Source of the DNA: a virus | Lineage: Duplodnaviria > Heunggongvirae > Uroviricota > Caudoviricetes | Virus record (IMG/VR): IMGVR_UViG_3300037418_001222 | DNA: 49,910 nucleotides | Strand: one strand, 5' to 3' | Shown: piece after piece, positions 4,928 to 48,680 of the stretch | Position numbering within the stretch: the stretch's first letter is position 1 | Layout of the letters: the number at the start of each line of letters is the position of its first letter | The notes under the pieces: model-generated | Told to the model about the DNA's origin: nothing | Seen by the model: only the letters and a program-made list of their open reading frames with translations | The model's database searches: none | Translations under genes and position numbers: made by a program

Positions 4928-5956
4928 TTAAGCGGTGATCAAGTCAGGAGATTTAGCCGCCTTCTCTACTGCAAGGTTGAGTGCCTTATTCTTCAAAACA
5001 CGATTTGATCCAAACCAAGCGCTCTCGAGTCTGGTTTCATCTGATCGCCCGAGTACGTGATCTGTCATATAAGTGACAACATTTAGTGCCTGCCACCATG
5101 ATCCTTCTTCAAGATCGGCTCCTGGCTGATTGTTGATAAGAGCTAGGGCCATTTGATGATTGCGATGAGGAACATCTGGATTTTTGGATGCATCGCCCTT
5201 GGGAAAGATTTCCGAAAAGTACTCATTGAGCGACTCGTCAGTGAATCGCTTTCCTGCAATAAAATTAGCAGCATCACGATATTCTTCAAGCAACGTATGA
5301 GCGATACCAAGAGTTGCCATAACTCGTTCTGCGTCGAATGGCTTGCGGTGTGAGCTTCTAACGACTTGCTGGTCTATCGTAAGTCCACGACCAATCGCCA
5401 TTGAAAGAGTATTCCAACAAACTACTCTGATGGGAGTAAATCTGATATCAATGGCCTTACCGAATTGATGTGGATTAGTGAACAGTAAGTGAGACTGAAC
5501 CTCATCTTTCTTGCGGCCGACAAAGAAACCATCCTTCACGCGTGCGAGTGCCCATACTAACTGGCCGCCCTTAAGCGATCCAGCTGTGTGCATTTCCATG
5601 TCGCCCTTCATTACGAAGTCCTTGAAGAAATCGAATGCTTCTTCGTTCTGGAGTGGATTCCAATCCGGAGTGACTACATCCAAAATCTTCTGGTCGGATG
5701 AACGTACCAGAGCGCATCGAGGAATTGACACTTTATTGAGATGAGGTCTCATCTCACCAAGACGTTTCATGGGTTCCAAGTGAGGGAGTTGTATGAATGC
5801 TGGAACCTTCTCTACAGTCCAATCAAGATTGGCAGCCTTCAGCATCTGCATCGGAGTGAGGTCGTTTGGAACTTCTTTTCCGAGTCCATGCCATGGTGTT
5901 TCTCCGGCATAGGCCATTGAGGCCTTTCCATTTACAATTTCTAATTCGTGGCTCAT
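4928..5956 (-). CDS. DUF932-family (TIGR03299-type) phage/plasmid protein
   Basis: MSHELE..MAYAGETPWHGLG...LQNEEAFDFF...TAGSLKGG...FTPIRVVCWNTL signature. Confidence 0.9.
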   Translation of the reverse strand: MSHELEIVNGKASMAYAGETPWHGLGKEVPNDLTPMQMLKAANLDWTVEKVPAFIQLPHLEPMKRLGEMRPHLNKVSIPRCALVRSSDQKILDVVTPDWNPLQNEEAFDFFKDFVMKGDMEMHTAGSLKGGQLVWALARVKDGFFVGRKKDEVQSHLLFTNPHQFGKAIDIRFTPIRVVCWNTLSMAIGRGLTIDQQVVRSSHRKPFDAERVMATLGIAHTLLEEYRDAANFIAGKRFTDESLNEYFSEIFPKGDASKNPDVPHRNHQMALALINNQPGADLEEGSWWQALNVVTYMTDHVLGRSDETRLESAWFGSNRVLKNKALNLAVEKAAKSPDLITA

Positions 5957-20465: not shown

Positions 20466-20542
20466 TGGCGCGCCTGGTGGGACTCGAACCCACAACGCAT
20501 GCTTTTAGAGAGCACCGCTCTAACCAATTGAGCTACGGGCGC
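20466..20542 (-). tRNA. amber suppressor tRNA (anticodon CUA)
   Basis: GCGCCCG acceptor; anticodon stem GTGCT/AGCAT with loop CT-CTA-AA; GTGGG-TTCGAGT-CCCAC T arm; GCCA end. Confidence 0.85.
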
Positions 20543-21163: not shown

Positions 21164-21251
21164 ACGGGCTCTCTTTTTGCTCCAATAGCAAAAGCCTAAA
21201 GCGACTTTTATAGGAATCGAACCTATTATAAGAGTTTGCTGAACAGAGCCC
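21164..21251 (-). ncRNA. Y-RNA-like family member 1 (permuted mini tRNA elbow)
   Basis: GGGCTCT-GTTCAGCAA ... AGAGCCC-GT; cargo ATAGG-TTCGATT-CCTAT T arm, AAAAG/CTTTT stem, GCT-ATTGG-AGC. Confidence 0.75.
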
Positions 21252-21260
21252 AAATTTTAT

Positions 21261-21361
21261 CAGGTTCCCTTTTTTGCAACGGGAATTGAACCCGCAACGT
21301 CTGAGTAAAAGTCAGATGTGTATCCATTACACTTTGCTAAAAGGTTTGATGTAAGGAACCT
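21261..21361 (-). ncRNA. Y-RNA-like family member 2 (CCA-less tRNA-Lys(UUU) body)
   Basis: AGGTTCC-TTACATCAA ... GGAACCT-G; cargo has a D arm, TCTGA-CTTTTAC-TCAGA and GCGGG-TTCAATT-CCCGT. Confidence 0.75.
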
Positions 21362-21783: not shown

Positions 21784-21912
21784 ACAGGTTCGTCTTGTTG
21801 CTACGTGCGCTACCATTACACCAAAGTCCCGCAAAATATGGTGGGACCCCTAGGATTCGAACCTAGACCACGACTATCCAAAAGTATGCAAAAGGGTTGC
21901 TGAATCGAACCT
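21784..21912 (-). ncRNA. Y-RNA-like family member 3 (YrlA-like circularly permuted tRNA domain)
   Basis: AGGTTCG-ATTCAGCAA ... CGAACCT-GT; cargo T arm CTAGG-TTCGAAT-CCTAG, GGGTCCC-ACCA-linker-GGGACTT, D arm GTGT-AATGGTA-GCGC. Confidence 0.82.
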
Positions 21913-22090: not shown

Positions 22091-23509
22091 TTAACGGAAG
22101 TCATACCTCTCGGTCATTACTGTCTTACGCATGATTCCCTCAGGAGTCATGTTGTTCAGGTCCGCAGACAGAACAGACTTCATGATCGATGGGCTGAAAC
22201 CAGAGACTAGAGCAGTTCCAGTTTCATCGAAGGTTACAGGAACATTGCCATGAGCGTTGATGTTCCAGAAGACGATGGCTGGTACTTCATATCCAGCATT
22301 CTCATAATCATTTCTGATCATTTCGACTGCTCGAGCATCAGGACGGCAACAATTGAACTGCATATCCGACATGATTAGAAGTGCGGTTGGCATCTCTTCC
22401 TGAGGAACATCCTTGTCACATGCGACCTGAAGAATCTTCTTAAGAGCCTTCTGGAGGTCGGTACTCATACTCCAGTTAGACTTAGCCATAGTGTTATAAC
22501 GCTGAGACAGAGTTCCCTTAACGGTCACGAACTCAGGAGAGCTGGAGAACGTTAGGAAAACATCTTTAAAGTCACCAGTGTTCTTGCTTGCGCAATATAG
22601 ACCAAGTGACACCGCAACGTCAAGGCATGATACGGTTACACCCTTCGCTCCATAGCCTCCGGCTGGGCAGGTCATAGAACCAGAGACGTCTACTAGAGGT
22701 AGAACACGAGCATCACCAATGTAGTTTGGTAGAGCTTCCCACTGAGCATCGGCCACAGACGAATCACCATACCTAACGGTCTTGATGACGTCATATGGAT
22801 ACACTGCTCCGGCGTTTACCTTCGCAACCTTTGGATCACCCTTCTTCAGAGCGGCCTTCCATGCCTCGAAGTGAGCTGGAGCGTGCTTCTTGAATGCCTT
22901 CGTGTAACGAGACATAGCAAGAGATGGTACGTGATTGAAGTTAATAGCCTCGAACTCACGGTTACACATAAGAGTTTCGACGACCTGAGTTAGAGACACA
23001 AGAGTCTTACGGTACTGCTTAGGTGAGAAGTGCATGAACTCACGGAGTTCGCGAGCTAGAGCACCCTTACGAGGCATCCACTTAGCGCAGAGACCATTTC
23101 CGTCACGCAGAGCATCACGGATTAGACTATATGCGACTTCCTTCACTTCACGAGTAGAGAATACGAGCAAGTCATCCCAACGACCAAGCTCTGGAACCTT
23201 ACGAAGAAGATTCGTCTCAGTCAAGAGGTTTGGCTTAACCTTCTCAAGGTGACGAAGAACGTCACGGAAAAGCTTACGCTCACCGGTGCCCTGGCGCACA
23301 TCTCGACCATGGAGAGCGATACGGACAGCTAGATCGGAATCCTCGATGAGAGCTAGATCGAATAGCTGAGTAATGTCCTTACCACGAGAAGCACCAAGCT
23401 TACCGAATAGATCGACGTTGGCGCGACAGGTAGACTCAAAAGCCTTCATGCCATTGGTGGTACGAGTCTTCTTTGGAGTGTTACGAACTGCATTTGCGAA
23501 AGTAGTCAT
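22091..23509 (-). CDS. DUF2828-family Ro60/TROVE-like protein with C-terminal vWA domain
   Basis: TTNG, RDVRQGTGER, GRWDDL, AKWMPR, VPSLAM; vWA MIDAS DVSGSM, SDMQF, IVFWN, SGFS. Confidence 0.88.
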   Translation of the reverse strand: MTTFANAVRNTPKKTRTTNGMKAFESTCRANVDLFGKLGASRGKDITQLFDLALIEDSDLAVRIALHGRDVRQGTGERKLFRDVLRHLEKVKPNLLTETNLLRKVPELGRWDDLLVFSTREVKEVAYSLIRDALRDGNGLCAKWMPRKGALARELREFMHFSPKQYRKTLVSLTQVVETLMCNREFEAINFNHVPSLAMSRYTKAFKKHAPAHFEAWKAALKKGDPKVAKVNAGAVYPYDVIKTVRYGDSSVADAQWEALPNYIGDARVLPLVDVSGSMTCPAGGYGAKGVTVSCLDVAVSLGLYCASKNTGDFKDVFLTFSSSPEFVTVKGTLSQRYNTMAKSNWSMSTDLQKALKKILQVACDKDVPQEEMPTALLIMSDMQFNCCRPDARAVEMIRNDYENAGYEVPAIVFWNINAHGNVPVTFDETGTALVSGFSPSIMKSVLSADLNNMTPEGIMRKTVMTERYDFR

Positions 23510-23527: not shown

Positions 23528-23595
23528 ACAGGTTAGTGTTTGTCCGCTAAGACAATCGGAAGTTTTAGCGAGTTTTGTTTTGCTGAAACTAACCC
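23528..23595 (-). ncRNA. Y-RNA-like family member 4
   Basis: GGGTTAG-TTTCAGCAA ... CTAACCT-GT, immediately upstream of the DUF2828 RBS; internal CGCTAA/TTAGCG stem. Confidence 0.75.
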
Positions 23596-23616
23596 ATGAT
23601 TCGTGTAACAGGAGTT

Positions 23617-23676
23617 ACAGGTTCCGTTTTTGGCTTTTTTTCAAGAAAAGTTTGGTTGAGTTGCGGAATGGAACCT
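23617..23676 (-). ncRNA. Y-RNA-like family member 5 (Ser-UGA anticodon stem-loop)
   Basis: AGGTTCC-ATTCCGCAA ... GGAACCT-GT; cargo CTTTT-CTTGAAA-AAAAG. Confidence 0.72.
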
Positions 23677-23692
23677 TTAAATCAAATTATAA

Positions 23693-23862
23693 ACGGGATG
23701 CTGCGCTATTTGGAAGCTGCTCAACCCTGGTTATTTCCTACCAGAAAATATCGTTTCTTTTTGCAGAGCTTACGAGGCTCTTTCTATTACCCGAAGGTAA
23801 TAGAATTTCAAGCGTCTGGTAAAACCCCGAAGGGTTCATGAAAGTTTTGCTGAAATCATCCC
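23693..23862 (-). ncRNA. Y-RNA-like family member 6 (multi-hairpin, Thr-CGU anticodon stem-loop)
   Basis: GGGATG-ATTTCAGCAA ... CATCCC-GT; two C-TTCG-G hairpins, TACCAGA/TCTGGTA stem, AGAGC-CTCGTAA-GCTCT. Confidence 0.75.
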
Positions 23863-23871
23863 TAAAAGTAT

Positions 23872-23947
23872 TGGAGCGGATAGCGAGAATCGAACTCGTC
23901 TCCATGCACGGTTTGGAAGACCGGCTGCATACCCTATGCTTACCCGC
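23872..23947 (-). tRNA. tRNA-Gly(UCC)
   Basis: GCGGGTA/TATCCGC acceptor, loop CT-TCC-AA, U73-CCA. Confidence 0.88.
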
Positions 23948-23959
23948 TCATTAGGATTA

Positions 23960-23990
23960 ACTATATATACTCGTCTCCAATAAATGTCAA
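23960..23990 (-). promoter_or_regulatory. sigma70-type promoter for the tRNA-Gly / ncRNA / DUF2828 unit
   Basis: TTGACA-17-TATATA(GT). Confidence 0.72.
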
Positions 23991-48539: not shown

Positions 48540-48616
48540 TGGTCAGGGTGGAAGGAATCGAACCTTCACCTCGGGGGTCCAAGCCACCGATTTCTCACCG
48601 CCTAAACTACACCCTG
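48540..48616 (-). tRNA. tRNA-Pro(UGG), second divergent copy
   Basis: CAGGGTG/CACCCTG, loop CT-TGG-AC, ACCA. Confidence 0.82.
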
Positions 48617-48628
48617 ATTAATTATGTA

Positions 48629-48680
48629 ACAGGAACGTCTTGGTTGTTATAGCAAAACAAAGAGTTGCTGAATCGTTCCT
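48629..48680 (-). ncRNA. Y-RNA-like family member 7 (minimal; Ser-GCU anticodon stem-loop)
   Basis: AGGAACG-ATTCAGCAA ... CGTTCCT-GT; cargo TTGTT-TTGCTAT-AACAA. Confidence 0.75.

Follow-up and report, generated by a model that had tools for sequence, protein, structure and literature searches.

What use could a bacteriophage have for the anticodon arm of a transfer RNA (tRNA) without the rest of the molecule? The question is raised by the viral record IMGVR_UViG_3300037418_001222, analysed here over its whole length of 49.9 kilobases (kb; hereafter the window), which is phage DNA whose genes lie almost all on the minus strand, with ribonucleotide reductase genes and 16 tRNAs called by ARAGORN. 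Between positions 23,617 and 23,862, two hairpins with the geometry of anticodon arms, reading Ser-UGA and Thr-CGU, lie in two small elements, members 5 and 6 of a series of seven. Neither ARAGORN nor Rfam calls a tRNA in this segment, and acceptor, D and T arms are absent around the anticodon arm. In all seven elements the two ends are joined by a stem of 6-7 base pairs (bp), after which come 3-4 bases and a CAGCAA-type motif, and each element finishes with CUG or CCG; we refer to this scaffold as the handle and to the enclosed sequence as the cargo. The analysis suggests that member 5 belongs to a family of phage elements carrying lone anticodon arms beside the gene of a putative Ro60-like protein, and that these arms may be bait for host nucleases.

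The preliminary description of the region, made from the letters alone, reported both hairpins, and both are confirmed. CTTTT-CTTGAAA-AAAAG lies at 23650-23634 on the minus strand, inside a 58-nucleotide (nt) element (23676-23619), and AGAGC-CTCGTAA-GCTCT lies at 23781-23765 on the minus strand, within a 168-nt element (23862-23695) that has two UUCG-capped helices, immediately 3' of the second. Each has five Watson-Crick pairs and a 7-nt loop with C32, U33, A37 and A38. On the two strands of the window together there are four occurrences of the strict pattern (five Watson-Crick pairs, CU-NNN-AA), namely the two hairpins, a real tRNA-Lys(CUU) and one coding site. Dinucleotide shuffling puts its chance occurrence at 0.006 for the cargo of member 5 and 0.0016 for that of member 6, and that of a looser Y-U-N-N-N-R-N rule at 0.011 and 0.038, respectively. 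The same description called the two arms bare, which suits member 5, with its 35-nt cargo; in member 6, a multi-helix RNA, the Thr-CGU hairpin is one of about five.

Comparison with homologues separates the two hairpins further. The identical Ser-UGA 17-mer was found by exact search within a handle RNA in 27 of 28 viral stretches, some of them contigs of loci already collected, and these stretches include phages at about 58% protein identity. Across loci the Ser-UGA arms have five different stems, and in alignment A2, whose rows were chosen for an arm-like look, all five pairs show two-sided changes; the U31-A39 pair of member 5 also occurs in the majority of the real tRNA-Ser(UGA) arms of these loci. 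At the orthologous position the cargo is Ser-UGA here, Ser-CGA in locus L025, Tyr-GUA in L015 and an 8-nt loop elsewhere, and the closest relative, L001 (85% protein identity), has no arm. Member 5 and the short members of the family have the conserved 5-bp stem, 7-nt loop, Y32, U33 and R37 of a tRNA anticodon arm. The recurrence of one 17-mer in viral handle RNAs makes member 5 a true example of the proposed mimicry, and we regard it as very probably a real anticodon mimic.

For the Thr-CGU hairpin of member 6 the evidence is divided. Its geometry is that of an anticodon arm and it is predicted to be stable (ViennaRNA pair probabilities 0.85-0.92), and its conservation is lacking: none of 17 homologous long members keeps a 5+7 arm, and at the same place L001 has an 8-nt loop with another triplet. 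Loss of loop size and of U33/R37 in homologues had been named in advance as refuting the proposal, and for this hairpin the homologues do not uphold it. No such hairpin behind a UUCG helix was found in viral contigs, and a metagenome scan for member 6 returned one further homologue without an arm, plus chance hits. The hairpin may therefore be an ordinary helix whose loop fits the anticodon pattern by chance, perhaps a C-GUAA-G tetraloop helix with a 3-nt insertion, to which we give somewhat less than even odds. The same CTCGTAA letters do form a GUAA tetraloop in another long member (L119), long members are weakly enriched for arms (5/44 versus 1.2 in shuffles), and the phage's own tRNA-Thr(CGU) has a different arm. 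On the other side stand the low chance of the strict pattern in this cargo, agreement with the family rule U36-A37-A38, a distance of two letters from a phage tRNA(CAU) arm in L024, and the existence of bare CGU arms within the family (L113, L127, L128); we lean slightly towards a real mimic.

Anticodon arms as recurrent cargo

The family set consisted of 80 viral loci with a DUF2828 homologue, and its short members were taken as the distinct cargos of at most 50 nt (n = 90). A perfect 5-bp hairpin with a 7-nt Y-U-N-N-N-R-N loop is present in 37 of these 90, compared with 0.9 ± 0.8 (maximum 4) in shuffles, and in 52 if four pairs are allowed; the enrichment of 5+7 hairpins with U33 and R37, suggested beforehand as a check, is thus borne out. 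Loops of 5, 6, 8 and 9 nt occur 1-3 times among the same cargos, that is, at background, and the enrichment is specific to loop size. We made no use of the mid-length bin (26/62), which is inflated since the anticodon rule also matches T-loops. Kinship does not explain the enrichment, since perfect arms are spread over 36 of the 80 loci and, once the cargos are clustered at 80% identity, over 17 of 53 clusters. The pair counts of alignment A2 come from rows picked for resembling arms; the non-circular test is one in which sites are selected by loop motif only, and here the flanks pair at 63% of positions versus 38% in arm-swap controls (maximum 50% in 5000).

The anticodons are varied and their context is restricted. 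An unbiased set of 47 bare arms holds 15 anticodons, with Thr-UGU (13), Lys-UUU (8) and Ser-UGA (7) the commonest, and many single phages keep two to four different ones. Within this set C32 is found in 44, A37 in 46 and A38 in 42 arms, while position 36 is U in 31 and A in 16, with no G or C at all. When all loci are considered, U or A occupies position 36 in 38 of 41 distinct 17-mer arms, as against 344 of 617 full phage tRNA arms (p = 7e-7), and A31-U39 is kept in 28 of the 41. A-U richness alone does not account for this restriction, since G or C is common at positions 34 and 35 and not at 36 (12, 10 and 3 of 21). U or A at position 36 followed by A37-A38 points to the tRNA classes with a hypermodified A37 and to the nucleases and enzymes that act on them. 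U39 is present in seven of eight bare Lys arms and in five of 17 full phage tRNA-Lys(UUU) (p = 0.011, a value that ignores kinship). Members of a Thr/Lys subclass have, outside the arm, a further helix of 3 bp that covaries (TGC/GCA or TAC/GTA, with a two-sided change from G-C to A-U), and a single unpaired A. At the level of the family, the idea of a library of anticodon mimics is supported by the loop-size-specific enrichment, the covariation of the arms, the 15-21 anticodons with several per phage, and their switching at orthologous positions.

Other cargos accompany the bare arms. The family also holds tRNA bodies without an acceptor end and permuted domains resembling those of YrlA RNAs, and both types occur within the window. 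An acceptor-less body on a handle switches anticodon among close relatives, being Lys-UUU in the window (21262-21361, minus strand), Glu-UUC in L001 (7931) and Lys-UUU in L002 (8365); elsewhere such bodies read Gly-UCC, Cys-GCA, Arg-UCU, Ser-UGA and Thr-UGU, so that this class, unlike the bare arms, includes C36. Thr-UGU and Lys-UUU arms whose outer 3-bp helix and unpaired base resemble a D-stem and position 26 occur in L003, L014, L029, L040, L045, L080 and others. UCA anticodon arms (of opal or tryptophan/selenocysteine type) were seen in L014 (5708-5798), L015 (4540-4630) and L149 (837-918), two of them followed by a T-arm-like hairpin. A further short subclass has UUGG-containing loops in a U-rich/A-rich hairpin (L026 at 3781, L084, L090, L098, L105), only some of which fit a Gln-UUG arm. 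A candidate His-GUG arm in L014 was rejected, its loop being 8 nt.

The handle and its putative Ro60-like partner

Six of the seven elements in the window flank a 472-amino-acid (aa) DUF2828 gene, and both hairpins lie between that gene and a tRNA-Gly(UCC)-like gene. The features are as follows.

21166-21251, minus strand: member 1, handle RNA with a T-arm-like hairpin
21262-21361, minus strand: member 2, handle RNA with a tRNA-Lys(UUU) body (D, anticodon and T arms), without free acceptor end or CCA
21786-21912, minus strand: member 3, handle RNA with a permuted, YrlA-like tRNA domain made up of T arm, acceptor-like stem and D arm, and no anticodon arm
22091-23509, minus strand: DUF2828/DUF7788 gene, 472 aa, predicted Ro60-like ring with vWA domain, presumed RNA partner (Pfam, predicted model)
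23531-23594, minus strand: member 4, 64-nt handle RNA immediately upstream of the DUF2828 ribosome-binding site, no anticodon arm
23619-23676, minus strand: member 5, 58-nt handle RNA with a 7-bp closing stem, CCGCAA handle at 23666-23661 and an anticodon arm as its only cargo
23634-23650, minus strand: Ser-UGA anticodon stem-loop of member 5, 5 bp and 7 nt
23695-23862, minus strand: member 6, 168-nt multi-helix handle RNA with a 6-bp closing stem, CAGCAA at 23852-23847 and UUCG helices at 23837-23822 and 23805-23782
23765-23781, minus strand: Thr-CGU anticodon-like hairpin of member 6, stable by prediction, not conserved
23875-23948, minus strand: unannotated tRNA-Gly(UCC)-like gene heading the array (tRNA-clan Rfam match, E 0.002)
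48631-48680, minus strand: member 7, 50-nt handle RNA in a tRNA cluster remote from the array, carrying a weak 5+7 hairpin (U32, U38) that is Ser-GCU-like

The handle is conserved as a structure and is tied to the gene. Its closing stem covaries, with seven pairs that are 100% paired, four of them with two-sided changes, and its conserved motif is H[AC]GCAA. Perfect-stem handle elements were found in 78 of the 80 loci, 259 of 265 on the strand of the DUF2828 gene and six on the other; members 5 and 6 lie 110-350 bp upstream of that gene. Its 472-aa product matches only DUF2828 and DUF7788 in Pfam, with no TROVE domain, and has 710 homologues among cultured-phage records. An AlphaFold model of the protein (predicted template modelling score, pTM, 0.73) gave Ro60/Rsr structures as all of the top 11 Foldseek matches (E 1e-7 to 2e-5), at 12-17% identity in the structural alignment, and a sequence search of the PDB gave no match at E <= 1. 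The handle elements are best read as Y-RNA-like partners of a divergent protein of predicted Ro60-like fold, to which they would bind.

Bacterial and phage Y RNAs provide the closest comparison, namely YrlA/YrlB and Yrn1 with Ro60/Rsr (PMC4201824) and the Ro60 of Thermus phage phiLo with Yrl1 and Yrl2 (PMC12135203). Common to these and the handle RNAs are small size, a terminal stem, a short conserved motif near the 5' end, a same-strand position beside a gene of (here predicted) Ro60 fold, several copies per genome and mimicry of tRNA. The Ro60 of known Y RNA systems has a TROVE domain, whereas the present protein has no TROVE Pfam match or sequence match to Ro60; the Ro-binding motif GNCGAAN0-1G is absent from members 5 and 6, its place being taken by H[AC]GCAA, and Rfam YrlA gave no match up to E 5. 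By YrlA-type standards, then, the terminal stem and the Ro60-like neighbour on the same strand are found, and the GNCGAA motif and TROVE are not. The permuted T-acceptor-D domain of YrlA can be recognised by inspection in member 3, and neither member 5 nor member 6 has it. YrlA imitates tRNA at the elbow and acceptor and has no canonical anticodon arm (PMC4201824), and Yrn1 offers only a candidate with a 6-nt loop, whereas bare-arm members show the anticodon arm alone.

A second likeness is to the Class I RNAs of dictyostelids (RF01414; PMC7919456), which share a length of 42-65 nt, a short terminal stem, an 11-nt motif ending in CAGCAA beside the 5' strand, a CUG(U) end and a variable middle. 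These RNAs are reported from dictyostelids only, with a Dictyostelium upstream sequence element (DUSE) promoter and an RRM protein as partner, and neither anticodon cargo nor a Ro60-like partner has been reported for them. Member 5 has the stem, 11-nt motif, CUG end and length of this class; its full-length alignment to RF01414 (25.3 bits, E 0.11, model positions 1-56) scores below the gathering score of 41.5, and as phage DNA it falls outside the dictyostelid and DUSE definition. The likeness suggests that the Class I RNAs of amoebae may have a DUF2828-type partner. Our literature search, outside which most subscription papers lay, found no paper linking Class I RNAs with Ro60 and none on DUF2828 RNAs or the handle family.

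Handle RNAs also occur, unannotated, in the tRNA clusters of cultured phages, including L174 (Bas63; 10073, 10240, 10695 and 10782), L162, L111, L112 and L163. One of those in Bas63 is YrlA-like, and all are candidate partners of its DUF2828 protein gp130. In the stretches read from KVP40, S13, phiM12, mistaenkt and Bas63 the handle RNAs include no clean bare arm. Bacterial and metagenome-assembled-genome DUF2828 loci (L130-L161) have handle RNAs as well, although some of these contigs may be phage; clear anticodon arms are present in L150 (Ser-UGA-like), L151 (Lys-CUU) and L130 (an Arg-UCU body).

Possible bait for anticodon nucleases and competing readings

The reading that we favour, with a probability of about 0.42, is that the bare arms are bait for host anticodon nucleases. 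The small RNAs would be cut from one minus-strand transcript, and their constant handle, comprising the closing stem and the unpaired CAGCAA, would dock on the predicted Ro60-like DUF2828 ring, which would protect them and display the cargo, which varies from member to member. Short members such as member 5 would present a lone anticodon arm, folded on the protein in spite of its weak A-U stem, that can neither be charged nor be used in translation. With its host-type loop (C32, U33, A37, A38), such an arm could occupy, or be cut by, anti-phage nucleases of the host that attack anticodon arms, sparing the real tRNAs. More tentatively, the ring may serve in general to display uncharged tRNA parts from an exchangeable library, in which the bare arms act as decoys that inhibit tRNA-cleaving immune effectors.

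Several observations favour bait. The prime targets of the PARIS nuclease AriB are Lys-UUU and Thr-UGU (bioRxiv 10.1101/2025.02.04.636281) and that of P2-OLD is Thr-UGU (PMC12445682); the commonest bare-arm anticodons correspond to AriB targets (Lys-UUU, Thr-UGU, Asn-GUU) and to the P2-OLD target. AriB needs U39, which the resistant tRNA-Lys of T5 lacks, and we count for bait the retention of U39 in bare Lys arms together with the fast switching of cargo at orthologous positions. On Lys-UUU, t6A37 is a determinant for PrrC (PMC13602947). The DUF2828 protein of the window is 39% identical to Bas63 gp130, which counters the Ppl defence system (PMC11482910), and this too is counted in favour. The defence tRNAs that phages are known to use, T5 tRNA-Lys against PARIS (PMC11464382) and phage tRNA-Thr against P2-OLD (PMC12445682), involve the same anticodons (Lys-UUU, Thr-UGU, Asn-GUU) and the same conflict. 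They are complete, chargeable and cleavage-resistant and replace the host tRNA, whereas the handle RNAs are not chargeable and have target-like loops, and could therefore work only as bait, tether or sensor.

A number of points weigh against bait. The Ser-UGA arm, built from four U-A pairs and a single C-G pair, is not expected by prediction to fold on its own (ViennaRNA pair probabilities 0.03; +1.0 kcal/mol in isolation), RNAalifold does not call it, and its stem probably needs protein or modification to form. Bare-arm stems in general are far richer in A-U than real ones (G+C 0.24 versus 0.60), and the standard for a host-type stem is that of E. coli, which may not be the host's. For AriB, contacts with the D loop are required as well, and P2-OLD depends on a CNG motif in the stem that is absent from the four bare Thr-UGU stems; both nucleases may therefore ignore bare arms. 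The four handle RNAs of Bas63 are without such an arm, and the tested function of gp130 therefore does not involve anticodon-arm cargo. Within the scope of our literature search, no paper was found that names an anti-phage nuclease specific for Ser-UGA, nor any on anticodon stem-loop decoys or on lone anticodon arms as phage cargo.

The preliminary description had the mimics aimed at host enzymes that recognise tRNA (anticodon nucleases, modification enzymes or synthetases), and an arm might indeed recruit to the ring, or titrate, an enzyme that modifies A37 (MiaA/MiaB, TsaBDE), a synthetase that reads the anticodon (LysRS, ThrRS) or a site on the ribosome. Recruitment would parallel the Y RNA that tethers Rsr to PNPase, tethering by Y RNAs being established (PMC4201824; PMC12135203), and titration would retune host translation. 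U36 or A36 with A37-A38 is the signature of the t6A (ANN) and i6A (UNN) classes (PMC13602947), the A31-U39 pair kept in most distinct arms is a MiaB determinant, and the restriction at position 36 goes beyond A-U richness. Since several nucleases read the same A37 classes, this pattern does not separate tether from bait, and both fit the position-36 rule equally well. Tethering accounts less well for the variety of anticodons, as one arm per class would suffice and yet single phages keep and switch two to four. SerRS does not read the anticodon and hence is excluded as the target of the Ser-UGA cargo. We consider a tether or sponge unlikely.

Two further explanations are less likely. Cutting of the arm by a nuclease might open or free the Ro60-like ring and so start RNA repair or another counter-defence, with different members sensing different nucleases. 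A weak and accessible stem would suit such a trigger, Y RNAs gate access to the Ro60 cavity (PMC4201824), and ROT/TROVE proteins are listed among phage RNA-repair components (PMC7824862); there is no direct sign of a tripwire, no effector was identified adjoining the array, and the letters read the same for tripwire and bait, so that we hold the idea to be improbable. Slightly more improbable still is that the arms are relics, tRNA genes having been captured by the handle and eroded arm by arm, with cargo that has no anticodon-specific function. This would explain a graded series from acceptor-less tRNA bodies through anticodon and T arms together, an anticodon arm with a 3-bp helix resembling a D-stem, and the bare arm to degenerate loops, as well as the loss of the arm from the member 5 orthologue in L001. 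Decay would not spare loop size, however, and the loops keep C32 and A37 almost throughout, with a non-random position 36; two-sided changes preserve all five pairs in stems that are unlike those of real tRNAs, and phages at about 58% protein identity have exactly the same 17-mer.

Among the main targets of anti-phage nucleases are the anticodon arms of tRNAs, to which phages are known to respond with resistant tRNAs and repair enzymes. Recurrent, covarying lone anticodon arms on a common handle suggest bait as a third response, and would carry the mimicry known from Y RNAs beyond the tRNA elbow to the anticodon. If bait is the right reading, it would constitute an RNA-based counter-defence distinct from resistant phage tRNAs, the spectrum of anticodons would predict which tRNAs are attacked by host defences, Ser-UGA included, and through the shared handle the Dictyostelium Class I RNAs would gain a relative among viruses of prokaryotes. 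The restriction to U36/A36-A37-A38 and the retention of A31-U39 are concrete predictions about the reader of the arms. New in the present analysis are the loop-size-controlled test, the position-36 restriction, the comparison between bare-arm stems and those of complete phage tRNAs, and the differing verdicts reached for the two hairpins.

Setting of the array

At the gathering score, Rfam finds only tRNAs in the window. The tRNA-Gly(UCC)-like gene at the head of the array (23875-23948) is missed by that score and by ARAGORN, while its counterpart in L001 (5574-5647) is called normally. The short open reading frames overlapping the elements (23596-23841 and 23580-23822 on the plus strand, 23738-23905 on the minus strand) were rejected as coding, the conservation of the elements being structural and strand-linked. 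The best matches among sequencing runs are three DNA runs, all of them rhizosphere metagenomes and one possibly the source; no RNA run was listed. Metagenome contigs over the region represented relatives only, and joints that skip members 5 and 6, with sides of fewer than 30 letters or following the repeated handle, were not used. A promoter scan found nothing above chance and did not score a promoter-like TTGACA...TATATA site near 23990 (minus strand), upstream of the tRNA-Gly(UCC)-like gene. This site, TTGACA-17-TATATA, is repeated at the head of each RNA group, near 23990 and 21422 (minus strand) in the window and near 5528 and 7862 in L001, with a -10 box that does not have the usual final T. 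Elsewhere in the window, the ARAGORN calls at 20466-20542 and 48540-48616, both on the minus strand, comprise an amber (CUA) tRNA and one whose anticodon loop is irregular.
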